In this document: positions 5,157-24,695 of the stretch, one piece after another | Layout: each line of letters starts with the position of its first letter | Numbering within the stretch: the first letter of the stretch is position 1 | DNA from: Riemerella anatipestifer | GTDB lineage: Bacteria; Bacteroidota; Bacteroidia; Flavobacteriales; Weeksellaceae | NCBI RefSeq assembly: GCF_051132245.1 | Contig: NZ_CP081184.1 | DNA: 64,000 bases | Reading direction: 5' to 3' (one strand) | Program-made: the position numbers and the translations under genes | Notes under the pieces: generated by a model | Databases searched by the model: none | Seen by the model: only the letters and a program-made list of their open reading frames with translations | Told to the model about the DNA's origin: nothing

Positions 5157-5180
5157 GGTCGTGTATCAGAGTTAGTGATG
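5157..5180 (+). repeat. Cassette-boundary motif GGTCGTGTATCAGAGTTAGTGATG (copy 1)
   Basis: Near-identical 24-mer recurs directly after each immunity-gene stop codon (5157, 14912, 16712, 19281, 21283, 23815 x2, 23989; partial copy at 6598). Confidence 0.8.
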
Positions 5181-5203
5181 ATGATTTAAAATATTGAGGG
5201 ATA

Positions 5204-6199
5204 TTGTTATCCAGAGGAGAGGTTCTTTTAAATATTGGTTTAGACAAAGACGGTAACATTAGCCAACACACAGAGTATATCGCCTTTGGCGAGGTGCTGT
5301 TTGATGAGCATAAAGTAAGCCGACGAATGCCGTATCTTTTCAATGGTAAGGAGTTAGATAGTGAGACAGGACTATACTACTATGGAGCGAGGTATTACGA
5401 CCCGAGAGTAAGTTTGTGGCTGAATGTAGACCCGTTAGTAGAAAAAACAATGCAACCGTATGCTTATACGAATAATAACCCTATAATGTTGATAGACCCA
5501 ACGGGTATGGAGGCAGAGGATTGTCCTACTTGTCCAAAACCAGAGAGAGCGGAGCAAACTTTTAGGGTAAATAATAACACCTATGTTGCGACCCCTGCAC
5601 AAGAAAATTCTAATAATTTAGAGTGGGTAAAGCAGAGAGATATAGAAGGCGTAACGCTAACAAGAAACAAGGCAGATGAAAATATAAGAGCAGCAAGGTT
5701 GCGTTTAAGCCAAGCCATAGCTAATAGTCCTGCGGCTAAGTCTGTGGAACGATTTGAGAAAGGTTTAGCAATAGCAACGGGAGGTGTTATTTTAGTCCCG
5801 CTACTACCTTATGCGGTAAGTACTGGTTCTACTTCTGTATTAGCGACTAAAGCAGGTATTAGTATAGGTACACAGGTAATGGTCAGCCAAGATGTAAATT
5901 TGGTAAAGTTGGGAGCAGATACATTCTTAACTCCTTTAGCGGGTACTTTGGTTGGTAATTCATCAAACTTGAGTGCAAAACAATTAATAAATCAACGGTA
6001 TGAAAGTGCTTTTTCAATGTCCTCAAAGCAAGAGTTATTTGTTGGGGTAAGTACTGATTTGGTTTTTATGGGGCGTAATAATTTATATAAAAGAGCAGGT
6101 CTTCCAATAGTAGGGAATACTATAATTGAAGTACAATCCGAAATACTTTCACAAGAAATATCAAAACATATTCAAATAAAATTAAATAATGGAAAATAG
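5204..6199 (+). CDS. Orphan Rhs C-terminal fragment. It has only the last ~100 aa of the RHS core (DKDGNISQHTEY...DPTGMEAEDCPTCPKP) plus a distinct Gly/Ala-rich hydrophobic CT (CT-2)
   Basis: Homology to main rhs residues ~1240-1335 starts at nt ~5237. Different C-terminal domain. No YD-repeat body. Confidence 0.7.
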   Translation: MLSRGEVLLNIGLDKDGNISQHTEYIAFGEVLFDEHKVSRRMPYLFNGKELDSETGLYYYGARYYDPRVSLWLNVDPLVEKTMQPYAYTNNNPIMLIDPTGMEAEDCPTCPKPERAEQTFRVNNNTYVATPAQENSNNLEWVKQRDIEGVTLTRNKADENIRAARLRLSQAIANSPAAKSVERFEKGLAIATGGVILVPLLPYAVSTGSTSVLATKAGISIGTQVMVSQDVNLVKLGADTFLTPLAGTLVGNSSNLSAKQLINQRYESAFSMSSKQELFVGVSTDLVFMGRNNLYKRAGLPIVGNTIIEVQSEILSQEISKHIQIKLNNGK

Positions 6200-6593
6200 T
6201 AAGAAGAATACAGTATTGTTTATATCTTTTGTTATAATTATTACGACTACTGTTTTTACATATCGAAAATTTGTTTTGTTGCCAAATTTTGCCTTAAATG
6301 GAAAATATACGATAGGGGTTGTTGATAAAGTTGAGATGAGTATGAAGGGAAGTATATATAACATATATTTCAAGTATAAAGTTGGAGATATTCTATATTA
6401 TTCTAACAGTTCTCATAAAGTATCAGGTAATCCTAAGAAGATTTACGGGAAAAAGTTTATGGTAAATTACTTAGATGATAACAAAGAAAAATCGGAGATT
6501 ATATTGAGTATTCCTATCCCTGATAGTATAAAATCCGCTCCTGCTGAGGGTTGGAAAGAATTACCAGAATGGGCAAAGAAGGAGAAGAAGTAA
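6189..6593 (+). CDS. Candidate immunity protein for CT-2 (N-terminal TM helix)
   Basis: AT-rich ORF overlapping the orphan-CT stop. Followed by a partial boundary motif at 6598. Confidence 0.45.
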   Translation: MENSKKNTVLFISFVIIITTTVFTYRKFVLLPNFALNGKYTIGVVDKVEMSMKGSIYNIYFKYKVGDILYYSNSSHKVSGNPKKIYGKKFMVNYLDDNKEKSEIILSIPIPDSIKSAPAEGWKELPEWAKKEKK

Positions 6594-6597
6594 TGTA

Positions 6598-6735
6598 TTA
6601 AAGTTAGTGATGCTTATCTCCTATTCACTGCATCAGCCTTGCGTAAAATTTCCATCGAGATGGAAATTTTCCTCCATCGAGATGGAGATTTTTTTCCATC
6701 GAGGAGGAAAAAAGTTTGGGGCGGAGAAGAAATTT
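6598..6735. repeat. Palindromic REP/MITE-like element family A, copy 1 (core AAAATTTCCATC-GA-GATGGAAATTTT). Its 5' end carries a partial cassette-boundary motif (AAGTTAGTGATGCTTATCTCCTATTCACTGCATCAG)
   Basis: Same element at 25718-25850 and 45343-45412, with core CTCGCGTAAAATTTCC-N8-GGAAATTTTACGCGAG. Confidence 0.7.
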
Positions 6736-6775
6736 TGTTAGCTTTGGATAGTAATAATTTTTTAATTGTAATGTT

Positions 6776-7153
6776 ATGAAATACAAGTTAGTACAAAGAG
6801 GGAAACCCGGAGATTCGGAAGCCCCAAAGAAGTGGTACGCAAACCCTGTAAAAACGGGAAGCGTTAATCAAAAAAGCCTGTCCAAAGAGATTTCGGGGCG
6901 TTCCTCGCTTACGGCAGGAGATGTGAGCAATGTAATTCAGAACTTGTTGGATATTCTACCGTCAAAACTTGTGGAAGGCAACAGTGTACAGTTGGGGGAT
7001 TTCGGTACATTTAGAGTGTCTTTTTCCAGTGAAGGCGTAGATACAGAGAAAGACTTTACGACGGATAAAATTAAAGGTGTAAAAGTCTTATTCACTCCGA
7101 GTTCGGATTTTAAAAGAGTGTTAAGTGAGATGAGGTTCGAGCAGGAAAAATAA
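6776..7153 (+). CDS. Bacteroidota-type HU-family DNA-binding protein (HU-HIG-like, ~125 aa)
   Basis: Size and C-terminal KGVKVLFTPSSDFK-type HU fold signature. Sits between a family-A and a family-B repeat. Confidence 0.6.
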   Translation: MKYKLVQRGKPGDSEAPKKWYANPVKTGSVNQKSLSKEISGRSSLTAGDVSNVIQNLLDILPSKLVEGNSVQLGDFGTFRVSFSSEGVDTEKDFTTDKIKGVKVLFTPSSDFKRVLSEMRFEQEK

Positions 7154-7159
7154 GACTGA

Positions 7160-10100
7160 ATGCAGGTCGTACCTTCTAAAGCGTTGTGTTATTCGCGTAA
7201 GGGATGGCAGCGGTTACCCCACAGGCACAAAGCGGTGGGGTCTTTTGATGTAGGTGTGGCGAGGAGTAAAAGCGAACAGCCCGACCCGAGTAGTGGGTTT
7301 CAGCATTGGCGGGGGATACGCCCAAGAAAAGGAAAAGGACGCCAACTCACAGACAAAGGGGAGCGTTCGAGCCTTCGCTATGAATACGACGAGGAAACGC
7401 ACAGCCACCTGACGAAAATTACCGACCATTTCGGCTACGAAACCCGCACGGCGTACGACTACCGCTTTAACGCTCCGTTGGAAGTTACCGACCGCAACGG
7501 GGAGCAGCTGCACTATACCATAGACGCTAAGGGGCGTACCACGCATATTTTGGCGCCTAAAGAAGCAGCGGCGGGCGTGCCTTACACGGTGGCTTACGAC
7601 TATTATCCGGAAGCCAAAGTGCCTTACGCCAAAACAAGAAACTACGATGCCGAGCACGGCAAAGACATCATCACTTATACCTATACCGACGGCTTAGGGC
7701 GTACGCTGCAAGTCAAGAAAACGGCGGCACTGTTCCAAGGGAAAAACCAAGCCGATGCCGAGCGCCTCATTGTATCGGGCAAACAAGTGTACGATGCTTT
7801 GGGTCGGGTGGTAGAGAGCTATTACCCGACTACCGAAACGCCAAGCGAAGCGTTCAGCACCCAAGTTTCTACGGTAACGCCTACCACTACGGCTTACGAC
7901 GAGAAAGACCGCCCAATATTGCAAACCCTTCCCGATGGCAGCACGGTAGCCACGGCTTATGAGGTGTCGGAAACAGCAGGCACCAAGACCCTTAAAACCA
8001 CCGTAACCGATGCGTTGGGCAGGGTGTCCCATAGTGCCACCGATGTTTTGGGCAGAACGCTGAAACAGGTGCAGCCTACGGGGATAGAAACCACCTACCA
8101 CTACAACGCCCAAGGCGAACTCCTAAAAGTAACCGATGCCGAGGGACACCAGACCCTGAGCGAGTACGATCTTTTGGGGCGTCGCACCCAACTCACGCAC
8201 CCCGATGCGGGCATCACCACATTGGCGTACGATGCGGCGGGCAACCTTATACGCCGTCAGACCGCCCAAATTAGGGAGCAGATGCCCGATGCGGCGATAG
8301 AATACCACTACGACCACAACCGCTTGCAGGAAATCCGCTACCCTAAGCACCCGGAGAACAATGTCCGTTACCATTACGGTAAGCAGAGCGAGAGCCCTCG
8401 CCGTCGGGGACGCTTGTGGCTGGTGGAGGACGCCAGCGGTGGCACCGAGTATTTCTACGGCAGTATGGGCGAGGTTGAAAAAGAAATCCGCTCGCTACGC
8501 ATCACGCCGACGGAGGTGCACACCTACATCACCGAATACGGGTACGACAGCTTTAACCGTATCCAAACGATGACTTACCCCGATGGCGAAGTCTTGGACT
8601 TTGGCTACAATCGGGCGGGGCAACTCACCACCCTCACGGGGAAAAAGGGCAACTACGAATACACCTACCTTAAACAACAGGGGTACGACGAGTTCGAGCA
8701 GAAAGTGTATCGCCAGTACGGCAACGGTACTGAAACCCGTTATACTTACGACCCTACAATGAGGCGTTTGGCAACGCTCAACACCCAAAACACCAAACGA
8801 ACCTTCCAAGACAACCGCTATACTTACGATTTAGTGGGGAACATCTTGCAGGTGGAGAACCAAGTCCCAATCGTGAATTACGCTTTGGGTGGAGCTTCGT
8901 TATATAGCTATTCTTATGATGAATTGAATAGATTGGTAACGGCAGAGGGAACTTATACAGGCGACCAAAGCCAAGCCAGTTATACGCTGAATATGCAGTA
9001 TAACAAACTTAATGGCATCGTTCAAAAATCCTTAACCCACAAGCAAAACGGTAAGGACAAAGGTTATACATTAGATTATACCTATAACAATTCTAAACAC
9101 CCACACGCTTTAAGTATCCTAAAAGATACCACCACGCCTAAACCTCGCACCTATGAGTACGACGGCAATGGTAATCCGATAAGCTACGAGGGCTTTAAGG
9201 ATTTTAGAGTGATGGTATGGGACGAGGAGAACAGAATGCAAGGTTTAAACGACAATGGCAAACTCCACCTTTACACTTACGACCACACAGGCGAGAGAGC
9301 CGTAAAAAGTAGTGCGGAAAGTCAGAAGACCGTTATCAATGGCGTAAGTTCCGCCGTTATCGTTCACGCCGAGAATTACACGGCTTACATCAACCCTTAT
9401 TTTGTGGTTAATAAGGGTAAGTTTACCAAACATTACTTCGAGGGAACTTCGAGGATAGTAAGCAAACTGGGCGAAGGTACCTTTCATCAGCCAACAGGTA
9501 TAACCGCTGGTGGGATAGATTATATCAAGCAGTCAGCTAAGGTACAAGAGGCGATTGATAGTTATATTAGAGGTCTGAATGTACCACCGGGACCGCCAAC
9601 CCAGCACGGTATATACGGCACACCTGACTTTACAGGTGTGGAATATCCGTCTATTGACTGGAGTGATATATCCCAAGACCAAGAGCCACCAGAGGGTTGG
9701 CCAAGACCACCGAAGTTTAACGAACCGGGCGATGTGCCGGGTCCGCCAGTACAATACGGCGACCCAGTAAAGCCTGACAATGTTAAAGGAGGCTTTGGTT
9801 ATGTGGATAATGGGATAGAGGAAAAGAATTTATACTACTATCACCCTGACCATTTGGGTTCAAGTTCATACATTACAGATGTTAATGGTGATATAAACCA
9901 GCATACGGAGTATATGGCATTTGGTGAGGTATTGTTTGACGAACACAAGGTAAGCCGACGAATGCCGTATCTTTTCAATGGTAAGGAGTTAGACTCTGAA
10001 ACAGGGCTATACTACTACGGTGCAAGGTATTATGACCCAAGAGTATCTATATTCTTAAATGTAGACCCGTTAGTAGAAAAAACAATGCAACCGTATGCTT

Positions 10101-10834
10101 ATACGAATAATAATCCTATAATGTTGATAGACCCAACGGGTATGGAAGCAGAAGACCCGCCAACGAAATCACAATATATAGGACAGATTTACAAAGACGA
10201 CACGGGTACTTTTGTAGGAGGAAAGGACGGTTCTTGGAATGCAACAAGAAATGACGGCTCTAAAGAAACTATAATACCAGAGGTTAACTTGACGGCGAAG
10301 TCAAAGAGTAGTCAGAATGAACAAGCTGCAAGAATGCGTTTAAGCCAAGCTATAGAGAATACTAAAGCAGGGCAATCAATGAAATCTTTAGAGAGTTTTA
10401 TGTTTTATGATATGCCAATGAATATAGCAGGAGGAGAGTTAATTTCTGCTGGTTTAAAGGCTGCAAATATCTCTACAAGAGTTGGTAATTTTTTAAGTAG
10501 ATTTACGACAGCAGAGGGTTTTATGGGAGGAGCTATAGGTTTTAGATTACCGTTTAATTTAAATGTAGGATTGTATGCATCAGAAAATACACTTACATAT
10601 GGAACTTTTAAATGGAGTACCATTGCACCTAAAGTTTTAACTAAGAATGAATGGTTTGGGAGAAATATGCTTCAAATAACTCCAGAGTTTCAGTCAACAT
10701 TAGGCAGTTGGAGTAAGCAAGTTATTCCCAAAGGAACTTATATAAAGGTGGGATTAGTAGGTCAGCAAAGAGGAAATGCTCTGGGAACTTGGGTGCAGAT
10801 TTATGCTCCAAATAGAGTCCCATTTATTAAATAA
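7160..10834 (+). CDS. 5'-truncated rhs duplicate (rhs fragment 2). Near-identical to main rhs residues ~397-1335 from nt ~7356 on. The non-homologous N-terminal 65 codons are read through repeat B1. It carries a distinct Gly-rich CT (CT-3) after DPTGMEAEDPPTKSQ
   Basis: ~2.8-kb near-identical duplication of 1264-4050. The junction (KGERSSLRYEYD) coincides with the end of repeat B1. No credible native start; likely expressed only after recombination into the main gene or from an internal start. Confidence 0.75.
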   Translation: MQVVPSKALCYSRKGWQRLPHRHKAVGSFDVGVARSKSEQPDPSSGFQHWRGIRPRKGKGRQLTDKGERSSLRYEYDEETHSHLTKITDHFGYETRTAYDYRFNAPLEVTDRNGEQLHYTIDAKGRTTHILAPKEAAAGVPYTVAYDYYPEAKVPYAKTRNYDAEHGKDIITYTYTDGLGRTLQVKKTAALFQGKNQADAERLIVSGKQVYDALGRVVESYYPTTETPSEAFSTQVSTVTPTTTAYDEKDRPILQTLPDGSTVATAYEVSETAGTKTLKTTVTDALGRVSHSATDVLGRTLKQVQPTGIETTYHYNAQGELLKVTDAEGHQTLSEYDLLGRRTQLTHPDAGITTLAYDAAGNLIRRQTAQIREQMPDAAIEYHYDHNRLQEIRYPKHPENNVRYHYGKQSESPRRRGRLWLVEDASGGTEYFYGSMGEVEKEIRSLRITPTEVHTYITEYGYDSFNRIQTMTYPDGEVLDFGYNRAGQLTTLTGKKGNYEYTYLKQQGYDEFEQKVYRQYGNGTETRYTYDPTMRRLATLNTQNTKRTFQDNRYTYDLVGNILQVENQVPIVNYALGGASLYSYSYDELNRLVTAEGTYTGDQSQASYTLNMQYNKLNGIVQKSLTHKQNGKDKGYTLDYTYNNSKHPHALSILKDTTTPKPRTYEYDGNGNPISYEGFKDFRVMVWDEENRMQGLNDNGKLHLYTYDHTGERAVKSSAESQKTVINGVSSAVIVHAENYTAYINPYFVVNKGKFTKHYFEGTSRIVSKLGEGTFHQPTGITAGGIDYIKQSAKVQEAIDSYIRGLNVPPGPPTQHGIYGTPDFTGVEYPSIDWSDISQDQEPPEGWPRPPKFNEPGDVPGPPVQYGDPVKPDNVKGGFGYVDNGIEEKNLYYYHPDHLGSSSYITDVNGDINQHTEYMAFGEVLFDEHKVSRRMPYLFNGKELDSETGLYYYGARYYDPRVSIFLNVDPLVEKTMQPYAYTNNNPIMLIDPTGMEAEDPPTKSQYIGQIYKDDTGTFVGGKDGSWNATRNDGSKETIIPEVNLTAKSKSSQNEQAARMRLSQAIENTKAGQSMKSLESFMFYDMPMNIAGGELISAGLKAANISTRVGNFLSRFTTAEGFMGGAIGFRLPFNLNVGLYASENTLTYGTFKWSTIAPKVLTKNEWFGRNMLQITPEFQSTLGSWSKQVIPKGTYIKVGLVGQQRGNALGTWVQIYAPNRVPFIK
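7195..7323 (+). repeat. GC-rich structured repeat family B, copy 1 (GCGTAAGGGATGGCAGCGG...GTGGCGAGGAGTAAAAGCGAACAGCCCGACCCGAG...TTGGCGGGGGATACGCCC)
   Basis: Copies at 25941-26067 (+) and 45101-45213 (-). An internal hairpin covaries between copies (ACCCCAC/GTGGGGT vs CCACAGC/GCTGTGG vs GCTAC/GTAGC). Confidence 0.7.
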
Positions 10835-10851
10835 ATGATAATAAAATTAAA

Positions 10852-11214
10852 ATGGCACGAATAGAGTTTAAAAATTTAGATCAAATTATTAACATGGGTG
10901 GACCATGGGTTGGCGATTTATATATTGATGGTATTAAGATAGAAACAAATATTATTGAATGTAATTATATTGATAAAATAGATTTTTTCTATTTTGTTAA
11001 GTTTTTCGAAACTTCTAGAAAACAAAATGATAATTTTTTTTTAGTCTTGAAAATAGATAAGAATAATTTAAAGATTGAAATGTCTAAAGAAAAATTTGAT
11101 AAAATATATATAGTGGATGTTAAGGATAATAATATGTATTATACAATGGGGTTTCATAAGAATCTAAAGGTAGTAAGTAAGATCTTGACATGGGAAGATT
11201 ATGGAAAAGTATAG
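10852..11214 (+). CDS. Candidate immunity protein for CT-3
   Basis: AT-rich 120-aa ORF 18 bp after the rhs fragment stop. Confidence 0.4.
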   Translation: MARIEFKNLDQIINMGGPWVGDLYIDGIKIETNIIECNYIDKIDFFYFVKFFETSRKQNDNFFLVLKIDKNNLKIEMSKEKFDKIYIVDVKDNNMYYTMGFHKNLKVVSKILTWEDYGKV

Positions 11215-11254
11215 CCGATACATATTGTTAATAATATAAATAAGGAACTAAAAT

Positions 11255-11620
11255 TTGGCTTTATTAAACCTATTCCTTAAAACAATGAAAGATATATTGC
11301 AAAAAAAAATATTTGATATAGCGTATAGAGCTAATGTTCCAATTGATTTATTACCGAGTATAAATATTTCTAATGATTATGCTAAACCTTATATTGAAAT
11401 ACAGGATAATTATTATTATTATGTAATTAGAGAAAGAGGAGAAGAATATGAAAGAACTTTGTACTTTGATATTAAAAAACTATTATATAGGGTTTTTGAT
11501 GATATTTCGTTTGATATGGCTAAGATGATAAATTTTAATAGTGAAAGTGGAGAATATGTATTTTATCTATTAGAAAAAAAGAAAGAAATATTTAATAATA
11601 TGAAGTCATTAATAGGATAA
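11255..11620 (+). CDS. Hypothetical small protein (second candidate immunity/orphan immunity gene)
   Basis: AT-rich ORF in toxin-immunity context. Confidence 0.3.
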   Translation: MALLNLFLKTMKDILQKKIFDIAYRANVPIDLLPSINISNDYAKPYIEIQDNYYYYVIRERGEEYERTLYFDIKKLLYRVFDDISFDMAKMINFNSESGEYVFYLLEKKKEIFNNMKSLIG

Positions 11621-11727
11621 GTGTGTATGTTAAAATTAATTAATATCAAAACAAAAAATCTCACTTTCTTGTATATTTTACAAAAAATAAATATTTTAGT
11701 GAAGTTTAATATTAAAACAAATAAATC

Positions 11728-12285
11728 ATGGCAAAAAGTAAAAATAATGTAATTACCCACGGTTTAAGTGGTAAAGTAGGAGACTTATTGGTATTTAGCC
11801 AAAGAAATGGTAAAACTATAGTATCAAAAGTACCCAAAAAAAGTAATAAGGTAACAGACAAGCAGAAAGAACAAAGGGTCAGATTCCAAGAGGCAGTGTT
11901 ATATACAAAATCAATATCTCAAAAGCCAGACTTGCAAAAATTGTACGAAGAAGAAGCCAAAAGTAAAGGACTAAGTATCAATAATGTTGCAGTAGCAGAC
12001 TTTTTAAAAGCCCCTCAAATAGAAGAAATAGACCTTTCTCATTATACAGGTAAAAAAGGGGAGCCTATTAAAATCAAGGCTTTTGATGATTTTAAAGTAA
12101 AAAAAGTAACTGTAAGAATAGAAAATTCAGACAGTACCTTAGTAGAAGAGGGGGAAGCAGTAGAAGAAGGTTTATATTGGGTTTATACAACCACCTCTAA
12201 TAATGCAGAATTATCGGGCGATAAAATCACAATTAGAGCATATGATTTTTCGGACAATATGACAGAAAAAGAAGAAGGGATATAA
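11728..12285 (+). CDS. Hypothetical protein (185 aa, Lys/Glu-rich)
   Basis: Clean ORF ending in the hairpin GGGATATAAGTATCCC; no recognisable family. Confidence 0.35.
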   Translation: MAKSKNNVITHGLSGKVGDLLVFSQRNGKTIVSKVPKKSNKVTDKQKEQRVRFQEAVLYTKSISQKPDLQKLYEEEAKSKGLSINNVAVADFLKAPQIEEIDLSHYTGKKGEPIKIKAFDDFKVKKVTVRIENSDSTLVEEGEAVEEGLYWVYTTTSNNAELSGDKITIRAYDFSDNMTEKEEGI

Positions 12286-12289
12286 GTAT

Positions 12290-12366
12290 CCCTCTCGGAG
12301 TTCTCTCGAACACATCTCGAACCTACTCCGAAGCGATACGCAAAAAAAATAGGCTGTCAATATGGC
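12290..12366 (+). repeat. Variant-B cassette leader segment (CGGAGTTCTCTCGAACACATCTCGAACCTACTCCGAAGCGATACGCA)
   Basis: Matches the variant-B leader of the 19320 cassette; precedes rhs fragment 3. Confidence 0.6.
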
Positions 12367-12450
12367 AGTAGAGCAGCAGAATTTTGAAATAGCACGAGGA
12401 AAAGGAGTATATCTTACGGCACCGAAACCCGTTATACTTACGACCCTACA

Positions 12451-14532
12451 ATGAGGCGTTTGGCAACGCTCAACACCCAAAATACCAAACGAACCTTCCA
12501 AGACAACCGCTATACTTACGATTTAGTGGGGAACATCTTGCAGGTGGAGAACCAAGTCCCAATCGTGAACTACGCTTTGGGTGGAGCAAGTAACTATCAA
12601 TACCAATACGACGAACTTAACCGTCTAATAAGAGCGACAGGAACTTATACAGGCGAGGCAACTTCTGCGGAGTACCAGCTCCAAATGCAGTACAATAAGC
12701 TCAACGGTATTGTTCAAAAATCCTTAACCCATAAGCAAAACGGTAAGGATAAAGGTTATACATTAGATTATACCTATAACAACCCTAAACACCCTCACGC
12801 TTTAAGTATCTTAAAAGATACTACCACGCCTAAACCTCGCACTTACGAGTACGATGGCAATGGTAATCCTATCTCTTACGAAGGCTTTAAGGATTTTAGA
12901 GTAATGGTATGGGACGAGGAGAATCGTTTGCAAGGATTAAATGATAACGGTAAGTTGCATTTATATACTTACGACCACACAGGCGAGAGAGCCGTAAAGA
13001 GCAGTGCAGAGAGCCAAAAAACGGTGATTAACGGCGTAAGTTCCGCCGTCATCGTTCACGCGGAGAATTATACGGCTTATGTTAATCCTTATTTTGTAGT
13101 TAATAAGGGTAAGTTTACTAAGCATTATTTTGAAGGTACAAGCCGTATTGTGTCAAAATTGGGAGAGGGAACATTTCATCAGCCAAGTGGACTAATGGCA
13201 GGCGGTATAGACTACATTAAACAAAGTGCGAAAATACAGGAAGCCATAGACCAATATATCAAAGGATTAAACATTCCGCCAGGTCCTCCTACTCAACACG
13301 GCATTTATGGAACGCCTGATTTTACTGGCGTAGAATATCCGTCGATTGACTGGAGTGATATATCCCAAGACCAAGAGCCGCCCGAAGGGTGGCCACGCCC
13401 ACCTAAGTTTAACGAGCCGGGCGATGTACCGGGTCCGCCAGTGCAATATGGCGACCCAGTGAAACCAGAAACGGTAGAGGGTGGTTTTGGATTTAAGGAT
13501 AATGGCGTGGAGGAAAAGAATTTATACTACTATCACCCTGACCACCTCGGCAGTAGCAGTTATATTACAGATGCTAATGGCGATGTAAACCAACATACGG
13601 AATATATGGCGTTTGGAGAAGTGTTATTTGACGAGCATAAAGTGAGCAGAAGAATGCCTTATTTGTTTAATGGAAAGGAGCTGGATAGTGAGACGGGATT
13701 GTATTATTACGGTGCGAGATATTATGATGCGAGAGTAAGTTTGTGGCTCGGTACAGACCCATTGAGTGGGTATAACCCAATAATGGAAACAGAGCATTAT
13801 ATAGATGGTCAGCATAACGGAGGAGTATTTAACCCAATGAATGGAGCGACTTACTCTTATACATATCAAAATCCTGTGGTGTTTATAGATCCTAATGGAA
13901 AACAAACCTATTCTTCAACTATCATTGGTACTATTTTAAAACCATATAATTCAGATTATTACAGATTTAGAGAAAGTGCTGCATACCTTTTAAGTAAAAC
14001 ATCAGGTGTGAGTTTTGAAAAAATAAAAGCAGGTAGAATAATTAAGAGTAATCCCGAAGTATTTAATATCCCTTTTTATAGTTCAGGCTCAATAACACTT
14101 CCTTTAGGTGGTAAGAAAAACATTATTTCAACAAAAAACTTTTTTAAGAGCGGTTATAATAGATTGATAGGATATTTGGAGCATATGGCACATGAAGTTA
14201 AACACTTTGATCATATAGATGCTCATAATGCAGATTTAGAAAAATATATTACTGAATTTTCAAAACAGTATATTAAAGCTGGTTCACATGATGGAGCAAA
14301 GTATGAAAGACAAGCTGATTTTGGAGAGTATGTAATGGGAGGATTTGTAGATTTTACTGATAGGTATTATGGTAAAAATGAATTAGCGAAAATATTTGAA
14401 AATAAATCCAATACAGAAAAAGATGTTATGGGAAGAATAGATCAATGGTGGGGAAATTTTCAAAAATCTCCTGAGTATAAAAAAGCATTAGTTGATTATT
14501 ATAAAGAAAGAGTTGATAAAAGTGAAAAATAA
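12451..14532 (+). CDS. 5'-truncated rhs duplicate (rhs fragment 3). Homologous to main rhs from residue ~853 (GTETRYTYDPTMRRLATLN; homology from nt ~12419). Its CT (CT-4) contains an HEVKH (HExxH-like) motif
   Basis: Near-identical to 2633-4000 of the main gene. The RHS core ends DARVSLWLGTDPL, then a divergent pre-toxin segment and a ~260-aa CT with LEHMAHEVKHFDH. Confidence 0.75.
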   Translation: MRRLATLNTQNTKRTFQDNRYTYDLVGNILQVENQVPIVNYALGGASNYQYQYDELNRLIRATGTYTGEATSAEYQLQMQYNKLNGIVQKSLTHKQNGKDKGYTLDYTYNNPKHPHALSILKDTTTPKPRTYEYDGNGNPISYEGFKDFRVMVWDEENRLQGLNDNGKLHLYTYDHTGERAVKSSAESQKTVINGVSSAVIVHAENYTAYVNPYFVVNKGKFTKHYFEGTSRIVSKLGEGTFHQPSGLMAGGIDYIKQSAKIQEAIDQYIKGLNIPPGPPTQHGIYGTPDFTGVEYPSIDWSDISQDQEPPEGWPRPPKFNEPGDVPGPPVQYGDPVKPETVEGGFGFKDNGVEEKNLYYYHPDHLGSSSYITDANGDVNQHTEYMAFGEVLFDEHKVSRRMPYLFNGKELDSETGLYYYGARYYDARVSLWLGTDPLSGYNPIMETEHYIDGQHNGGVFNPMNGATYSYTYQNPVVFIDPNGKQTYSSTIIGTILKPYNSDYYRFRESAAYLLSKTSGVSFEKIKAGRIIKSNPEVFNIPFYSSGSITLPLGGKKNIISTKNFFKSGYNRLIGYLEHMAHEVKHFDHIDAHNADLEKYITEFSKQYIKAGSHDGAKYERQADFGEYVMGGFVDFTDRYYGKNELAKIFENKSNTEKDVMGRIDQWWGNFQKSPEYKKALVDYYKERVDKSEK

Positions 14533-14911
14533 ATATTTTTATATTGTGATCTTTCTGTGCTATTTTTCATGTAGCACAGATTATAGGGTAGTGTTAGATG
14601 GTCAGAGTAATTCAATTATTATACAACCAGATATAAGCTATAATAAAACGATAAATTTATCAGTTTTTGATATGGAAAATCATTTTGAAAATGAGTTTAA
14701 AATAAAAAAAGTAGATAACTCATCAAAAAATGTTATATCTTTCAATAAAGATATTAGTAGTCAATATAGTATAGAGGATAGTAATGGGAAAAGTATTAAA
14801 CGAATAGATTTATATCCTAATCGTCAATACTTTTTGAGTTCTGTAAATTCAGATGTAGTCTTAGAAGTGGAATTTAAAACTAATAGCAAGGGAGATATAG
14901 TGAAGAAATAG
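14492..14911 (+). CDS. Candidate immunity protein for CT-4 (lipoprotein-like; true start probably the GTG at 14519)
   Basis: Overlaps the toxin stop; signal peptide with FSCS; followed immediately by the boundary motif. Confidence 0.4.
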   Translation: MIIIKKELIKVKNKYFYIVIFLCYFSCSTDYRVVLDGQSNSIIIQPDISYNKTINLSVFDMENHFENEFKIKKVDNSSKNVISFNKDISSQYSIEDSNGKSIKRIDLYPNRQYFLSSVNSDVVLEVEFKTNSKGDIVKK

Positions 14912-14935
14912 GGTCGTGCATCAGAGTTAGTGATG
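14912..14935 (+). repeat. Cassette-boundary motif (GGTCGTGCATCAGAGTTAGTGATG)
   Basis: Starts 1 nt after the immunity stop. Confidence 0.8.
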
Positions 14936-14944
14936 CTAAAATAA

Positions 14945-15078
14945 ACTAAAAAATGTACTGTCAAACTGTCATAAAAACGAAAAGTGCGTTTCGGGGTTTC
15001 GTCGGACCTACGACGGAGACACGACGGAGCGATGACGGAGCGGTACGCAATAAAAAAAGACTGCCAAAATGGCAAAAA
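14945..15078 (+). repeat. Conserved cassette leader, variant A (ATGTACTGTCAAACTGTCATAAAAA...GTTTCGGGGTTTCGTCGGACCTACGACGGAGACACGACGGAGCGATGACGGAGCGGTACGCAATAAAAAAAGACTGCCAAAATGGCAAAAAGG). In-frame ATG at 14953
   Basis: Near-identical copies at 16745-16878 and 21325-21458; variant B at 19312-19448. Contains 3x ACGACGGAG-like direct repeats and the hairpin TGCCAAAATGGCA. Confidence 0.8.
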
Positions 15079-16491
15079 GGCAAGTTTACAAAACATTATT
15101 TTGAAGGTACAAGCCGTATTGTGTCAAAATTGGGAGAGGGAACATTTCATCAGCCAACAGGTCTAACCGCTGGCGGGATAGATTATATCAAGCAGTCAGC
15201 TAAGGTACAAGAGGCAATTGATAGTTATATTAGAGGTCTGAATGTACCACCGGGACCACCAACCCAGCACGGTATATATGGTACACCTGACTTTACAGGA
15301 CAAGAGTACCCAAGTATAGATTGGTCAGACATTAGCCAAGACCAAGAGCCACCAGAGGGTTGGCCACGCCCGCCGAAGTTTAACGAACCGGGTGATGTTC
15401 CGGGACCTCCGGTACAGTATGGCGACCCAGTGAAACCCGATAATGTGAAAGGTGGGTTTGGTTATGTGGATAATGGGATAGAAGAGAAAAACTTGTATTT
15501 CTATCACCCCGACCATTTAGGAAGTTCTTCGTATATCACGGATAAGGACGGTAATATCAATCAGCATACCGAATATATGGCATTTGGTGAGGTATTGTTT
15601 GATGAGCACAAAGTGAGTAGGAGAATGCCATACTTATTTAATGGTAAAGAATTAGACTCTGAAACGGGGTTGTATTATTATGGAGCGAGGTATTATGATC
15701 CAAGAGTGTCTATATTCTTAAATGTAGACCCGTTAGCGGAGAAAGCACCAAATTGGACACCATATCGTTATGGTTTTAATAATCCGATAAAATATACTGA
15801 CCCTACAGGACTTTTTGAAACTAAGTTTGGTGCTTGGTGGCATCGATTATGGAATGGAGGAGGTCATAGTAGTAGTATCAAGTATAATGAAAAAAATAAA
15901 GAATATTATTATAATAGACTTAATAATTCTACAGGAAATGAAATTAACTTTTCTGCTGTATATGGTGGAAAATCAAAAATTTCAATCAAGAATACTGCTG
16001 GATATGAATTTAAGGGAAGCGTTGAATTAGGACTTTTAAAGGTAAGAGATAAAGGAACAACAGGATATGAAATTAAAGGACCAACAATTACTTTAGGTGA
16101 GTTATCTATTGGTAAAAGTACTTCGGGTGATAAATTTTTGAAGGCGTATAATCCTTTCTATGAGTTGGGAATGGGAAGAAGGTTAAAAGGCGGTTTGGGC
16201 GGAGTAAAACTTGAAACGAAATATGGAGATTTTAAAGCATTCCGAAGATGGGAACTCCCAACAGTTTGGTTTCATATTGACCATAATGAAATAAATAATG
16301 TAGCTTCATATATGGAGTACAAAGATGAAGTAGGTATAGGTAAACCATGGTTAGAGTTTAAGGTAGAAAGAAGTAATCGGGGCATAATATTGAGATGTGG
16401 AATTCAAGAAGATTGGGGAATATCTATCAACAATGTGCTTGGTATAAAAGGTGAGTTTAGATATCAAGGTATAACAGAAATATCCTACTAA
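14953..16491 (+). CDS. Orphan rhs C-terminal cassette 4. Leader peptide MYCQTVIK... is fused in frame to the RHS core tail from GKFTKHYFEG (nt ~15079). CT-5 (~260 aa) is unclassified
   Basis: Homology to main rhs residues ~1080-1320, then a divergent CT after DPLAEKAPNWTPYRYGFNNPIKYTDPTG. Confidence 0.7.
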   Translation: MYCQTVIKTKSAFRGFVGPTTETRRSDDGAVRNKKRLPKWQKGKFTKHYFEGTSRIVSKLGEGTFHQPTGLTAGGIDYIKQSAKVQEAIDSYIRGLNVPPGPPTQHGIYGTPDFTGQEYPSIDWSDISQDQEPPEGWPRPPKFNEPGDVPGPPVQYGDPVKPDNVKGGFGYVDNGIEEKNLYFYHPDHLGSSSYITDKDGNINQHTEYMAFGEVLFDEHKVSRRMPYLFNGKELDSETGLYYYGARYYDPRVSIFLNVDPLAEKAPNWTPYRYGFNNPIKYTDPTGLFETKFGAWWHRLWNGGGHSSSIKYNEKNKEYYYNRLNNSTGNEINFSAVYGGKSKISIKNTAGYEFKGSVELGLLKVRDKGTTGYEIKGPTITLGELSIGKSTSGDKFLKAYNPFYELGMGRRLKGGLGGVKLETKYGDFKAFRRWELPTVWFHIDHNEINNVASYMEYKDEVGIGKPWLEFKVERSNRGIILRCGIQEDWGISINNVLGIKGEFRYQGITEISY

Positions 16492-16493
16492 AT

Positions 16494-16709
16494 ATGATTA
16501 TAGTAAAAACAATTATAATTACGGTTATTGTTATTTTATTTGGAATAATCTTCTATAATATGGTAATATATGATAAGATAATAGATAAAGAATTGAGTGG
16601 AAAGGAACTTGATGCTTTAGAAAGAAAGAAAGTTTATAAATTAAAAATTTACTTTTTTTTGATGTTTGTGTTTATAGTTTTAGAATTTCTTATAGAAGGA
16701 ATAGGATAA
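16494..16709 (+). CDS. Candidate immunity protein for CT-5 (71 aa, two TM helices)
   Basis: Starts 3 nt after the toxin stop; followed by a degenerate boundary motif at 16712. Confidence 0.4.
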   Translation: MIIVKTIIITVIVILFGIIFYNMVIYDKIIDKELSGKELDALERKKVYKLKIYFFLMFVFIVLEFLIEGIG

Positions 16710-16744
16710 TAGGTCGTATATCAAACTATGTAATAATAAAATAA

Positions 16745-16878
16745 GCTAAAAAATGCACTGTCAAACTGTCATAAAAAGGAGAAATGCGTTTCGGGGTTTC
16801 GTCGGATCTACGACGGAGACACGACGGAGCGATGACGGAGCGGTACGCAATAAAAAAAGACTGCCAAAATGGCAAAAT
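16745..16878 (+). repeat. Conserved cassette leader, variant A (copy 2)
   Basis: See 14945-15078. Confidence 0.8.
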
Positions 16879-18240: not shown

Positions 18241-18241
18241 T

Positions 18242-19279
18242 ATGAAAAAATTACTAATGTGTTTTCTGATGATTTTAGTAGCTATGGGATGTGAAGATTA
18301 TGTTAAAGAAAAAGATAATATTGAAATTCTCATATTTGAAGGGATGAAAGGAGAGTCGAAGTATATGTTTTTTATCAATCCGAAAGTAGGTTATTCTTTT
18401 AATAATCACACTGTAAGTGATTGGCATAGAGTTACAGAAGAACAACTCAAACAACCTAACTTTTTCCCAAAATCTACTGATATTTCTATTATTTATAAGA
18501 CCATAGATGGCGGTAAAACTTGGGCTAGTGTATATTCAATAGATGATTTTCGTTTTGATAAAGTTGCTTTTTCTGATAAAAATCGGGTTTACATAAAAAT
18601 CATTAATAGTAAAGAGACTTTGAATAATAAACTTTTAAAGTTTGAATTGGAAACTAATAAGGCTACTGTTTTTAGTTTTAATTTTGAAAGAATGGGTGAA
18701 ATATGGGCAATCAATCAAAAAGTTTTCATAAATAGCAAAAATAACGGTATTAATACTTTATATAGTATTGATAATGATTTTACTAAAATAGATTCAATAG
18801 AAGAAAATAAAATTTTTAAAGATAAAATAACTTTATTAGACAATACTCCATATACTATAACTTGGGATAATGAACTTTATAATATAGAAAAAAAAGAAGC
18901 TATTAGGTTATGTGATATTGAACTTGAGAGTATTATTGAAATGGGGAAATCTAATATATTAGTAGCTTGTAAAAAAGAATTTTCTATTATCCTCGTTGAA
19001 TATGACACAAGTACCAAAAAAAGAAAATATTTAAAGGAGTTTTCTGGTTATGATATAGTGAAAGGTTTGCAAAGTAATGATAAGGTGATTTGTGGATTTA
19101 TAGGAAGTATAAAGGGAATGTTTACAGAATATGATTTATTTTATAGTCTAGATAAAGGTAAAACATGGCATATACAAGAACTTAAAGAAAAGAGTTATAT
19201 CTCCTCTAGTGCTTTAGTGGATGATATATTATATATTTTTAGTGGGGGTAAGAGGATGCAAAAAATTTTATTAAAATAG
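18242..19279 (+). CDS. Candidate immunity protein for CT-6: lipoprotein with BNR/Asp-box-like repeats (DGGKTW, DKGKTW), probably a beta-propeller
   Basis: Lipobox LVAMGC; two SxDxGxTW-like motifs; position directly 3' of the toxin. Confidence 0.45.
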   Translation: MKKLLMCFLMILVAMGCEDYVKEKDNIEILIFEGMKGESKYMFFINPKVGYSFNNHTVSDWHRVTEEQLKQPNFFPKSTDISIIYKTIDGGKTWASVYSIDDFRFDKVAFSDKNRVYIKIINSKETLNNKLLKFELETNKATVFSFNFERMGEIWAINQKVFINSKNNGINTLYSIDNDFTKIDSIEENKIFKDKITLLDNTPYTITWDNELYNIEKKEAIRLCDIELESIIEMGKSNILVACKKEFSIILVEYDTSTKKRKYLKEFSGYDIVKGLQSNDKVICGFIGSIKGMFTEYDLFYSLDKGKTWHIQELKEKSYISSSALVDDILYIFSGGKRMQKILLK

Positions 19280-19280
19280 G

Positions 19281-19304
19281 GGTTGCGTATCAGAGTTAGT
19301 GATG
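19281..19304 (+). repeat. Cassette-boundary motif (GGTTGCGTATCAGAGTTAGTGATG)
   Basis: Directly after the immunity stop. Confidence 0.8.
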
Positions 19305-19311
19305 TAAAAAC

Positions 19312-19448
19312 GTTAAAAAATGTACTGTCAAACTGTCATAAAAAGTAAAAATAAGTTTCGGGGTTGTATCGGAGTTCTCTCGAAGAGATCTCGAACCTAC
19401 CCCGAAGCGGTACGCAGTAAAAAAAGACTGCCAAAATGGCAAAAAGGC
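19312..19448 (+). repeat. Conserved cassette leader, variant B. The central 40 nt are replaced by ATCGGAGTTCTCTCGAAGAGATCTCGAACCTACCCCGAAGCG; same length and frame as variant A
   Basis: Flanks identical to variant A; the middle matches the 12290-12366 element. Confidence 0.8.
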
Positions 19449-20921: not shown

Positions 20922-20931
20922 TTTAATTTTT

Positions 20932-21270
20932 ATGACGGCAGAAAAATTTATCAATGGTATTTATAAAGAGTGTGTTACAGATCAATTAAAAATATATGAA
21001 AATTTGCTTGAAAATACACCTAAAGCAACTGATCCGACTTGGATTGATATTATAAATATTTATAAAAATCTTAGTGTTAAGGAGAAAAAGTCTTTTATTG
21101 ATTTTTTAAAAATAGTAGAAGTTAATACAGTTGCCTCTATTTTGAGTATTATAGATGGAGATAAGCCAATAAACAATAACTTTCTAACATTTGAATTAAA
21201 GTCAGAAAGTGGGGAAAATATGAGTGGGGACCTTACGTATAGGTTCTTGGAGAAAGATGATCTTATATAA
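20932..21270 (+). CDS. Candidate immunity protein for CT-7 (112 aa, soluble)
   Basis: 10 nt after the toxin stop; followed by a degenerate tandem boundary motif at 21277-21315. Confidence 0.4.
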   Translation: MTAEKFINGIYKECVTDQLKIYENLLENTPKATDPTWIDIINIYKNLSVKEKKSFIDFLKIVEVNTVASILSIIDGDKPINNNFLTFELKSESGENMSGDLTYRFLEKDDLI

Positions 21271-21324
21271 AAGGAGGTGTATATCATGGTTGGGTGTATA
21301 TCAAAGTCAGTAATGTAAAAACAA

Positions 21325-21458
21325 TTTAAAAAATGTACTGTCAAACTGTCATAAAAAGCAAAAATAAGTTTCGGGGTTTCGTCGGACCTACGACGGAGAC
21401 ACGACGGAGCGATGACGGAGCGGTACGCAGTAAAAAAAGGCTGCCAAAATGGCAAAAA
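21325..21458 (+). repeat. Conserved cassette leader, variant A (copy 3). Here it is fused to a different rhs junction (HPHALSILKD, main-gene residue ~1002)
   Basis: The same leader is joined to a more 5' point of the rhs body. Confidence 0.8.
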
Positions 21459-23171: not shown

Positions 23172-23484
23172 AAAATTAAAAATAGGTATTATATTGGTAT
23201 GGCTTATATTTATTAATTATCTCAATAGGGATACATTAATGTATAAGCCTCTTTTGAGCAGTAGTTTTATACAAAAGGAAATAGTACAAGGAAGAATTAT
23301 AAATGAGAAAAACCCTTTGAGAAGAGGTTTTTTAACGGGAGCATTTACATATTCTTATTGTTTTGAGGTAGAGAATATAGTTTATACTAATGATAGCTAC
23401 AATGAAAAATATGAAGTGGGGGATATAGTTTTAGTAGAGTATAGTAAGAAATTTCCTTTTATGAATAGAATAGTGGAAAAATAG
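23164..23484 (+). CDS. Candidate immunity protein 8a (TM anchor plus conserved C-terminal domain)
   Basis: Overlaps the toxin stop. The C-terminal ~60 aa are identical to the next ORF. Confidence 0.45.
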   Translation: MNKKLKIGIILVWLIFINYLNRDTLMYKPLLSSSFIQKEIVQGRIINEKNPLRRGFLTGAFTYSYCFEVENIVYTNDSYNEKYEVGDIVLVEYSKKFPFMNRIVEK

Positions 23485-23503
23485 AGGTTATAAAGGATAA
23501 CAG

Positions 23504-23815
23504 ATGAATAATAAGGGTAAAATAAAGCTATTAGCATTGATCTTAATATTATTAGTTTTATTCAAAGAGATTGTGGTATACAAACCTATTTTAAATTTTT
23601 TTCCAACAAATAAAAAAGAAGGAAGAATTATAAATGAGAAAAATTATCTAAGAAGGGGATTTTTAACAGGGGCATTTACATATTCTTATTGTTTTGAAGT
23701 AGAGAATATAGTTTATACTAATGATAGTTATAATGAAAAATATGAAGTGGGAGATATAGTTTTAGTAGAGTATAGTAAGAAATTTCCTTTTATGAATAGA
23801 ATAGTAGAAAAATAG
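23504..23815 (+). CDS. Candidate immunity protein 8b, tandem paralogue of 23164-23484
   Basis: Identical C-terminal sequence GRIINEKN..KFPFMNRIVEK; divergent N-terminal TM segment. Confidence 0.45.
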   Translation: MNNKGKIKLLALILILLVLFKEIVVYKPILNFFPTNKKEGRIINEKNYLRRGFLTGAFTYSYCFEVENIVYTNDSYNEKYEVGDIVLVEYSKKFPFMNRIVEK

Positions 23816-23866
23816 GTCGTGTATCAAAGTTGGTCGTGTATCAAAGTTAGTGATGATGATGATTTA
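23815..23866 (+). repeat. Tandem double copy of the cassette-boundary motif (GGTCGTGTATCAAAGTT GGTCGTGTATCAAAGTTAGTGATGATGATGATTTAGG)
   Basis: Terminal copy of the array, immediately before the IS1-family transposase region; a further copy at 23989-24012. Confidence 0.75.
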
Positions 23867-23972
23867 GGTTATTAAGTGTTTGGTTGTTAGAGGTGATGTT
23901 ATTGTAGATAAGTCTTAAAAGATGAATGATAGATATATTAGAGTAACAAAAAAGTGATAAAAAAGGAGATAA

Positions 23973-24695
23973 ATGATAGAAATTAAGACCTCGTGTATCA
24001 AAGTTAGTGATACCAAGATGTGTCCCCATTGTTTATCAAAAAAAATTATTAAAAATGGACGCACCAAGACCTTAAAACAACAGTATTACTGTAAGGAGTG
24101 TTATCGTCGTTTTATAGATTATTATACCTATCATGCTTATCATTCAGAGATTAACCGCAAAATAGTGATCTATACAAAAGAGGGTTTGGGGATTCGTTCT
24201 ATAGCGAGGGTATTAGGTATATCTGCTACCACTGTACTGAAAAGACTTTTGGCTATAGCTAAAGCATTGTCTTCTCCTTTGATAGCCTACGGAAAGGAAT
24301 ATGAGGTAGATGAGATTTGTAGTTATGTGAGGCATAAAGGAAATAAAATTTGGATTACTTATGCTATGGAGCGTGATAGTGGAAATGTGGTGAGTTTTAA
24401 CATTGGTAGGCGAACTAAAACCACTTTGTCAAAAGTAATTACCACATTGCTTTATAGCCGTCCAAAGCGTATCTATACAGATGGTTTACATCATTACCGC
24501 TACTTGATTCCTCAAAATATACATAAGGTTTCCCGCTATGGCACTAATAAAATAGAACGATTGAACCTAACCTTGAGAACTAAACTAAGGCGTCTAAATA
24601 GGAGAACGATTTGTTTTAGTAAGAGTCTTTGTATGTTTATGGCGATAATGAAAATGATAAGGTTTATAGAATCAGAAGTATTTATTAATAAATAA
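23973..24695 (+). mobile_element. IS1-family transposase gene (fused InsA-like zinc finger/HTH plus InsB-like DDE domain; probable start MCPHCLSKK at 24018). Element termini not identified
   Basis: CPHC...CKEC zinc finger; the C-terminus NKIERLNLTLRTKLRRLNRRTICFSKSLCMFMAIMKMI closely resembles the IS1 InsB C-terminus ([24 protein letters not shown]...). Confidence 0.7.

Follow-up and report, generated by a model that had tools for sequence, protein, structure and literature searches.

What marks the 3' end of a toxin-immunity cassette in a polymorphic-toxin array? The question is raised by a 64,000-nucleotide (nt) stretch of the Riemerella anatipestifer contig NZ_CP081184.1 (hereafter the window), in which a 24-nt motif recurs just downstream of one immunity gene after another. 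The region is an Rhs/YD-repeat toxin array, as judged from the translations of its open reading frames (ORFs) and from RHS/TEN_YD-shell Pfam hits in sister strains. A full-length rhs gene, of which the window holds the 3' part (to 4720), stands first, together with its immunity gene. Seven co-oriented orphan units come next, in which a fragment of Rhs core leads into a variable toxin tip and then one or two immunity ORFs, and a transposase ORF of the IS1 family of insertion sequences (IS) closes the array. The array itself is a standard Rhs orphan array. Judging from its sequence relationships, the motif has its origin in IS1 and marks cassette boundaries. We consider it probable, if well short of certain, that it is a terminal repeat of the left inverted repeat (IRL) type belonging to the IS1-family element, and presumably a binding site of the transposase.

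The window was scanned on both strands for the 24-mer and for its 19-nt core, GTGTATCARAGTTAGTGAT, with up to three mismatches allowed and expectations taken from shuffled sequences. The 24-mer was found at 5157, 14912, 19281 and 23832, always on the + strand (expected, 0.00). The core was found in eight + strand copies, starting at 5161, 6593, 14916, 19285, 21296, 23819, 23836 and 23993, against an expectation of 0.04; in the 64-kb window scanned it has no copy on the - strand and none beyond 5.1-24.0 kb. These numbers are far above chance, and the motif follows essentially every immunity gene, in a single orientation, as the first-pass annotation of the locus had proposed. The copies, including those identified by context, are as follows.

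5157-5180, + strand: A-type motif copy without mismatches, 12 nt past the stop at 5144 of immunity ORF 4599-5144
6589-6612, + strand: full-length variant copy, (A)GTAATGTATTAAAGTTAGTGATG, the seventh post-immunity copy
11621-11644, + strand: possible very degenerate relic, GTGTGTATGTTAAAATTAATTAAT, directly 3' of ORF 11255-11620; a weak candidate
14912-14935, + strand: copy with one mismatch, 0 nt past the stop at 14911 of immunity ORF 14492-14911
16712-16735, + strand: degenerate copy, GGTCGTATATCAAACTATGTAATA, with 7/24 mismatches, 2 nt past the stop at 16709 and followed by a leader element
19281-19304, + strand: copy with two mismatches, 1 nt past the stop at 19279 of immunity ORF 18242-19279 and followed by a leader variant
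21276-21315, + strand: partial outer copy, GGTGTATATCATGGTT, and degenerate full copy, GGGTGTATATCAAAGTCAGTAATG (21292-21315), after immunity ORF 20932-21270
23815-23855, + strand: terminal copy A, a 17-nt partial copy (23815-23831) and a full copy (23832-23855), the left end of the IS1-family unit
23989-24012, + strand: copy B, CCTCGTGTATCAAAGTTAGTGATA, within transposase codons 6-13

The spacing between stop codon and motif is 0-12 nt at 5144, 14911, 16709 and 19279; at 21270 the full copy starts 21 nt downstream and a partial copy fills the gap. The gap between the stop at 5144 and the copy at 5157 (5145-5156) is likewise a partial outer copy, TATATCAGGTCG; to the 3' side of this copy come about 11 nt of transposase-upstream spacer and then the orphan 5204-6199. 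The variant copy at 6589-6612, earlier taken for a partial copy at 6598, is of full length and holds the TAA stop of the immunity-like ORF 6189-6593. Its GGTAATG form is the commonest A-type form of the motif in other taxa. The tandem double copy reported at 23815 stands as a partial and a full copy; the partial one overlaps a stop, its first G finishing the TAG of ORF 23504-23815. The copies at 16712 and 21292 (6/24 mismatches) can be identified through alignment with their neighbors, the former only by alignment and context, and strain L002 has a clearer copy at the position homologous to the relic at 11621. Internal copies thus carry up to 6-7/24 mismatches and at 11621 are nearly gone, whereas the terminal copies carry 0-1; by this comparison, the internal copies in the window are decaying, and they probably lack a function of their own. 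A sequence at 45478-45521 that had been called related resembles the motif no more than background does (rank 97 of 6394 windows); the intergenic region in which it lies, 620 nt long and with a modest hairpin, is unrelated.

The motif folds poorly, as had been noted: it contains only a weak ATCA-N7-TGAT dyad (a 4-6-bp stem, -0.4 to -4.5 kcal/mol). The copy at 14912 alone folds better than shuffled sequences (z -3.6, -4.5 kcal/mol), by a stem not common to the other copies. A scan of the whole window with Rfam at the gathering threshold and a transfer RNA scan gave no match. With neither a GC-rich hairpin nor an Rfam family at gathering score in the window, the motif was rejected as a terminator, in agreement with the first reading, and also as a repetitive extragenic palindromic (REP) element.

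Direct repeats at an IS1-family transposase

The gene that closes the array provides the key to the motif. Its product carries the IS1 transposase domain, with weak InsA zinc-ribbon/helix-turn-helix hits at the N-terminus, and its ATG at 23973 is the start used for the 232-amino acid (aa) protein of NCBI. Copy B, which had been placed upstream of the transposase start, lies inside this ORF and encodes T-S-C-I-K-V-S-D. Besides A and B, the unit consists of:

23856-23972, + strand: spacer between A and the transposase ATG
23973-24695, + strand: IS1-family transposase ORF (Pfam DDE_Tnp_IS1, 1e-22)

The order is A (GGTCGTGTATCAGAGTTAGTGATG), about 133 nt, the ATG, the direct copy B in codons 6-13, and the rest of the transposase; in Riemerella, A is placed 137 nt upstream of the ATG. 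The distance from A to B is 157 nt in the window and 153-157 nt in other genera. Transposase homologues that are 41-62% identical are nearly all 232 aa long and have a common N-terminal peptide, x-S-C-x-K-V-S-D. At the DNA level the conservation of B goes further than the peptide. A homologue 55% identical in protein reads TCGTGTATCAGAGTTAGTGAT at the B codons, a perfect match to the motif over 21 bases. Among 18 transposases of <90% identity, the majority frequency at third codon positions is 0.98 in the seven codons of B vs 0.61 +/- 0.17 elsewhere, and B is the sole 7-codon window that reaches 0.98. This constraint on third positions argues that B is a cis-acting DNA site embedded in the coding sequence.

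A is found 153-157 nt upstream of B in seven of eight lineages (among them Riemerella, two of Flavobacterium, Chryseobacterium and metagenomic ones), and also on three plasmids. The terminal motif copy, 3' of the last immunity gene, is the A of Riemerella (23832 in the window, 1360 in strain L006). The two repeats co-vary by lineage: both read ..AGTTAGTGAT in most Flavobacteriia, ..GATGTGTTGAT in L025 and L155, and ..AATTTGGGGAT on an Emticicia plasmid, as would be expected of two sites that a single co-evolving protein reads. Since the A/B/transposase unit is also present on a Riemerella plasmid and an Empedobacter plasmid without nearby Rhs genes, the repeats belong to the transposase unit and not to Rhs. 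Conservation of A was also examined in 37 metagenome modules picked through B only. There, conservation starts sharply at the GGT of A and reaches about 0.8-0.99 per column, vs about 0.3-0.9 in the spacer. The terminal pair is conserved beside the transposase and probably serves transposase binding and autoregulation, by analogy with InsA of IS1. InsA is well established to bind the IS1 inverted repeats (references are listed in PMC9330008).

The relationship to IS1 extends to the ends themselves. The ends of E. coli IS1 were verified from two independent insertions, as IRL GGTGATGCTGCCAACTTACTGAT and, in reverse complement, the right inverted repeat (IRR) GGTAATGACTCCAACTTATTGAT. In ungapped comparison with these, the Riemerella motif is identical at 14-15 of 23 positions, and the A forms of Flavobacterium and the metagenomes at 16-17 of 23; a fraction of 2.7e-4 of the 23-mers in the window reach at least 14/23. 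As in IS1, the repeat is 23 bp with a 5'-GGT outer end, has the same orientation relative to the gene, stands upstream of a DDE_Tnp_IS1 (zinc-ribbon/helix-turn-helix) gene, and joins variable DNA with its outermost base. The earlier statement that the motif is not a classical IS terminal repeat is thus reversed in its main point: the motif is a homologue of the terminal repeats of IS1 and is part of the unit of the IS1-family transposase next to it.

Two further features of the unit may be added. In the consensus of the metagenome modules the spacer has a conserved palindrome, ATTGAAAATCAAT, and, close ahead of the transposase start, a terminator-like hairpin with a T run behind it (GAGAGTAGG...CCTACTCTTGTTTATTTTTG); a host-factor site and a terminator/promoter pair are possible identities for these. 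In the window, homology of the transposase to intact copies ends at 24659 and the conserved C-terminus, ...KIYFWY, is replaced, so that this copy is probably defective.

Junctions at the motif and exchange between strains

In Riemerella strains the DNA changes sharply at the outer (GGT) edge of A, to whose left about 14 different partners are seen. To the right of the array, conservation between strains starts exactly at this edge (98.7% identity from A to 24659), and the immunity gene to its left differs. The left edge of the motif is the 3' limit of the toxin-immunity units here, in other Riemerella strains and in other taxa, which bears out the suggestion that the motif delimits cassettes. 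In two strains, specific deletions end exactly at A: the main Rhs core of L008 runs ...QVPIV directly into A, and an orphan core of L023 runs ...GEGTF into A. They look as IS-mediated adjacent deletions do. Stop codons are supplied partly or wholly by the repeat, as TA/G (23815, L006, and L002 18538), G-TAA-TG (6589) and GTA-TGA (L001 13140). In many taxa partial outer copies are nested just left of A.

These junctions would be accounted for if the outer GGT edge of A were the transposase-active end, repeatedly joined to new DNA on its left. The joining could proceed via insertion and/or IS1-style adjacent deletion, which would trim the DNA as far as the immunity gene and in some cases remove a few of its bases. 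Since that gene is protected by selection, trimming would halt at its 3' end, and the motif would come to abut each distinct immunity gene. Homologous recombination in the Rhs core repeats would then multiply and exchange blocks consisting of core fragment, toxin tip, immunity gene, motif and leader, so that array-internal motif copies would be ends of former IS copies that were carried along.

The exchange step could be followed in one case. The identity profile against strains L001 and L002 is at 70-80%, rises to 100% from about 19990 to about 21650 (L001) or 21830 (L002), and returns to 70-80%. Within the identical block, the 3' core and toxin tip are followed by the immunity gene 20932-21270, then by the motif at 21292 with its leader, and finally by the first part of another core fragment. 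The block breaks in Rhs core repeats at either end, and the motif was carried inside it. This single resolved recent event indicates that recent shuffling is homologous recombination, because the 100%-identical block spans the motif and breaks in core repeats; for the array at large we infer the same rule. The event also speaks against the proposal that the motif is the site of cassette exchange, since the breakpoints are elsewhere, on both sides of it.

Such an exchange fits the model of Jackson et al. (2009; PMC2935791), in which Rhs orphan arrays arise via C-terminal displacement, homologous recombination in the core and circular intermediates. The Riemerella array shares with theirs a full-length rhs gene followed by orphans of variable-length core fragment, tip and immunity gene, as well as exchange through homologous recombination in core sequence. 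It differs in having an IS1-type end at the 3' boundary of each unit (in other taxa, a whole module of A, spacer and B) and in being closed by a conserved IS1-family transposase, both of which fall outside the model. Rhs and other polymorphic-toxin arrays are generally taken to diversify through homologous recombination. How new toxin-immunity pairs acquire their 3' boundary, and where the circular intermediates originate, was explicitly left open in that study (PMC2935791).

Several observations weigh against reading the motif as an IS1-type end. An inverted right-end repeat was not found within 800 nt downstream of 23 transposase genes searched with their own A sequences (best 10-15/23, which is noise), nor within 2.5 kb on plasmids. 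In the window, scans gave no inverted partner of the motif, as had been stated earlier, and local alignment of both flanks was likewise negative. No 8-9 nt to the left of A are consistently repeated within 3 kb downstream, and the right end is undefined; in related elements similarity ends about 10-25 nt from the transposase stop codon. The element is single-copy per genome, with the exact transposase at one locus. In 24 of 24 R. anatipestifer assemblies the transposase lies between the Rhs array and a DUF3686/AAA gene, and most homologues are listed on a single contig. The element thus departs from IS1 in several respects: its second copy is direct and lies within the coding sequence of the transposase, and no inverted copy stands at the far end; one ORF of 232 aa takes the place of insA/insB' with frameshift; the element is single-copy and prefers a polymorphic-toxin neighborhood; and no target duplication was found at it. 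In its behavior it is not a canonical IS, and it is at most putatively mobile. Because the inverted partner and multi-copy dispersal fail, we regard it as an atypical IS1 subfamily and not canonical IS1.

The inner (right) edge of the motif raises a further difficulty, as it too is a sharp junction, with at least seven different partners in Riemerella. The sequences that succeed ...GTGATG are the native spacer, the leader in two variants, a REP-like element with an HU gene, the module of the 185-aa ORF, and two others. Inner-edge junctions are not a product of adjacent deletion from the outer end; they could come from recombination within the 24 nt of shared sequence or from transposase activity at the repeat. 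The A copies inside the arrays of other taxa are, moreover, still well conserved, which hints at continuing function rather than a pure relic. Finally, that trimming is limited by selection on immunity is a step we infer.

Spread across taxa and competing explanations

Three sources gave contexts in other genera: look-ups of exact proteins, plasmids, and the metagenomes, which were scanned for the exact 19-mer in four variants and gave at least 120 loci. One contig from a viral collection brings the set examined to 121. In so large a collection, a 19-mer in four variants can be matched exactly by chance. The layout of A, about 133 nt, ATG and B was found in Flavobacterium, Chryseobacterium, Empedobacter and Emticicia, on plasmids, and on more than 100 metagenome contigs. 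Among the matches listed, Rhs-like tblastn hits lie on the motif strand at 62 of the 121 loci and on the opposite strand at none; same-strand hits accompany A-type copies (GGT prefix) at 24 of 40 loci of at least 3 kb, and B-type copies (CCT/CTT prefix) at 16 of 20. Where a metagenomic transposase locus has at least 2.5 kb of upstream sequence, that sequence is Rhs-like in 12 of 17 cases. The association with toxin loci is strong but not absolute, since in the exceptions the transposase adjoins rpoC, ftsZ, rodA and similar genes. Neither GGT nor CCT/CTT precedes 38 of 134 metagenome motif copies. Some of these are probably chance matches, for example in L030 (the viral-collection contig) and L072, where the exact 19-mer sits in a common, unrelated and apparently coding sequence with no such prefix, transposase or Rhs nearby; the metagenome matches thus include false positives.

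In F. sediminis, F. johnsoniae, Chryseobacterium geocarposphaerae and a Salibacteraceae metagenome-assembled genome (MAG), Rhs/DUF6443 toxin and immunity genes directly precede the transposase on its own strand. In arrays from other taxa the whole left end stands between cassettes: the immunity stop is followed by A, spacer, ATG and B, then by an Rhs core fragment with tip and immunity gene, and then by A again. At some position an intact transposase follows B, often with a further core fragment about 60-100 nt past its stop. The Emticicia oligotrophica (Cytophagia) plasmid pEMTOL03 (L154) carries, in order, a giant HNH toxin gene, an SMI1/KNR4 immunity gene, the transposase and a very large ORF, which extends the association to Cytophagia and to non-Rhs polymorphic toxins. 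On this plasmid the entire A-spacer-B module is duplicated in tandem upstream of the transposase (4600-5100). In metagenomic locus L013 (380-470), the DNA upstream of A encodes ...NFEVEGNHNYYVSEGN, which from its sequence looks like the end of a Hint-type polymorphic-toxin domain, and hence like another non-Rhs toxin context.

Could the motif be without any enzymatic role? The terminal motif and some 830 bp of conserved IS behind it, together with the Rhs core, might form a portable pair of flanking homologies by which toxin-immunity pairs are swapped between strains or species by double crossover. The resumption of conserved sequence exactly at the left edge of A, next to immunity genes that differ, is what such swapping would leave, and the transposase flank is present in all 24 assemblies. 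The first-pass annotation had thought of the motif as a 3' homology arm. For the 24-mer alone this fails, and it survives only in the modified form in which the conserved IS behind the terminal copy could serve. Even so it leaves unexplained that internal copies are followed by non-IS sequence, that the motif abuts many immunity genes exactly, and that A and B are conserved and co-vary at the DNA level across genera, and in the resolved exchange the right arm was a core fragment and not the IS. We hold it to be unlikely, though it fares best among the alternatives.

A slightly less likely proposal gives the transposase the leading part. The IRR-less IS1-family enzyme would be a specialized (domesticated) DDE recombinase of the polymorphic-toxin loci of Bacteroidota, recognizing the motif in A, in B and in the post-immunity copies. 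Motif-bounded toxin-immunity cassettes would be captured, excised, deleted or reordered by it, much as by an integrase at attC or by the RAG proteins at their recombination signal sequences, except that a DDE enzyme acts. Consistent with this, both edges of the 23-24-nt motif are sharp and have many different partners, partial outer copies are nested left of A in several taxa, and internal A copies are conserved outside Riemerella. The transposase, moreover, is kept at 232 aa across genera, usually in single copy and without an inverted end; toxin loci adjoin it at 12 of the 17 metagenome loci with enough flank, at five chromosomal loci (Riemerella, two Flavobacterium, Chryseobacterium and the Salibacteraceae MAG) and on the Emticicia plasmid, always co-oriented. 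The strain comparison argues otherwise: the sole resolved recent exchange breaks in core repeats and not at the motif, and internal copies in the window are decaying. Large arrays persist without an active enzyme, for the transposase is truncated in the window and its gene is missing from strain L001, where A abuts the downstream flank. In other taxa the junctions between B and the core are scattered 4-30 nt beyond B; they look more like deletions of the transposase body than like products of cleavage at one set base. The unit is also found on plasmids and beside rpoC, ftsZ and rodA, with no toxin genes nearby.

The resemblance to integron attC arrays deserves comment in this connection. Here, as there, a short conserved element stands 3' of each cassette in one orientation, and a recombinase-type gene lies at the end of the array. 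The motif differs from attC in lacking a hairpin-forming imperfect palindrome and in that exchange, in the single event, did not break at it; the enzyme, which is the sole recombinase-type gene in the array, is a DDE transposase and not a tyrosine recombinase. An attC-like site was rejected on these grounds: no foldable palindrome, no tyrosine-recombinase integrase, and resolved breakpoints in Rhs core DNA.

That the motif copies are operators, at which an InsA-like domain of the transposase represses or insulates transcription between cassettes (A and B bracketing the transposase promoter, internal copies standing between an immunity gene and the next orphan), is the least probable reading, and we think it quite improbable: the terminator-like hairpin and promoter-like stretch between A and B in other taxa, the short ATCA-N7-TGAT dyad, and the analogy with IS1 InsA binding its inverted repeats are in its favor, but the internal copies decay in the window, and the diversity of junctions and the outer-edge deletions are left unexplained.

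The IS1-type end remains the reading we prefer, and other mobile elements offer partial parallels to it. One-ended transposition of the Tn3 family and the IS91/ISCR elements likewise have one recognizable end with a variable extent of adjacent DNA at that end. They use other enzymes (DDE plus resolvase in Tn3, HUH in IS91/ISCR), and single-end mobilization of DNA is without evidence here. The nearest precedent is in E. coli, where H-rpt elements, which are IS-like and of the ISAs1 family, occur inside Rhs elements, downstream of the rhs core extensions; an IS-type element is thus a recurrent component of Rhs loci in both cases, though of another IS family. We know of no report of an IS-end repeat after each immunity gene for H-rpt. 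Literature searches turned up no paper that connects IS1-family transposases with Rhs or polymorphic-toxin loci.

Array components and significance

At four of the motif copies (14912, 16712, 19281 and 21292) a conserved leader, about 140-160 nt long, separates the motif from the next Rhs core fragment. One complete leader and a partial one are:

14936-15075, + strand: leader between motif and Rhs core fragment
12295-12367, + strand: right-hand part of the leader, between the 185-aa ORF 11728-12285 and orphan 12451-14532

Further leader copies are at 16736-16875, 19305-19445 and 21316-21458. Among the sequences examined, the leader is confined to Rhs loci, and comparison by BLAST and by eye revealed no homology between it and the A-spacer-B module of other taxa. 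The leader gives the next orphan an in-frame ATG; that at 14953 (MYCQTVIK...) begins orphan 14953-16491. The leader ATGs at 14953, 16753, 19320 and 21333 yield MYCQTVIK.../MHCQTVIK... with about 40 leader-encoded residues, and are the starts used by gene callers in sister strains. The leader fusions in Riemerella are all in frame, yet they represent only about two independent junctions, and for this reason selection for translation of orphans from the leader is not demonstrated. As a general explanation, an element that exists to supply the orphan start codon was rejected, since in other taxa the fusion is out of frame in L136, L105 and L149 and in frame in L144. Miniature inverted-repeat transposable elements were rejected as well: the A-spacer-B modules (about 180 nt) have direct and not inverted repeats, and the Riemerella motif plus leader is a unit without inverted ends.

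Other modules occupy the same position in the array. The 185-aa ORF (11728-12285), which has no Pfam hit, is a recurring module between a motif copy and a partial leader, upstream of long orphans, and occurs twice in strain L002 (7158-7715 and 18641-19198). The copy at 6589 is followed by a REP-like tandem of hairpins with TTTCCATCGAGATGGAAA-type units (6613-6775) and by a gene for a DNA-binding protein of the HU-HIG family (6776-7153; Pfam 2e-32), and these directly precede the long orphan 7160-10834.

Downstream of the array, a segment at 24660-25727 replaces the sequence found in L006, L008 and L023; it starts in the last codons of the transposase, truncating the gene, and homology resumes at 25728. 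It contains ORFs for a 158-aa membrane-like protein (24695-25171) and a 151-aa protein (25244-25699), the latter with a counterpart in sister strains that has ankyrin-repeat Pfam hits. Near-perfect 23-nt inverted repeats of a REP-like family, CGTCGGTCTCGCGTAAAATTTCC and GGAAATTTTACGCGAGGCCGACG, lie at 25735-25810, between the array and the DUF3686/AAA gene (26088-30899, - strand), and in L006 at 2455-2560, where a G-rich stretch follows them. A fragment of the same REP-like unit, aaattttacgcgaggccgacg, is present at the start of the region 45380-45700.

With the motif largely explained, what is unexpected, and testable, is an IRR-less IS1 lineage associated with toxin loci. In Riemerella, and widely in Bacteroidota, the 3' boundary of the toxin array would be the end of an unusual IS1-family element, with two co-varying direct repeats, one of them within its own coding sequence, and no inverted end, which travels with toxin loci. 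Its transposase is a concrete candidate for the enzyme that sculpts toxin arrays. For practical purposes, GGTNGTGTWTCARAGTTAGTGAT is a simple tag for finding toxin-immunity cassettes in the genomes and metagenomes of Flavobacteriia. If the element is only a hitch-hiking relic, it still aids annotation, in that a conspicuous repeat is explained and the transposase start corrected; if the transposase does act as a recombinase on the motif, the system would be a transposase-based functional analogue of the integron.

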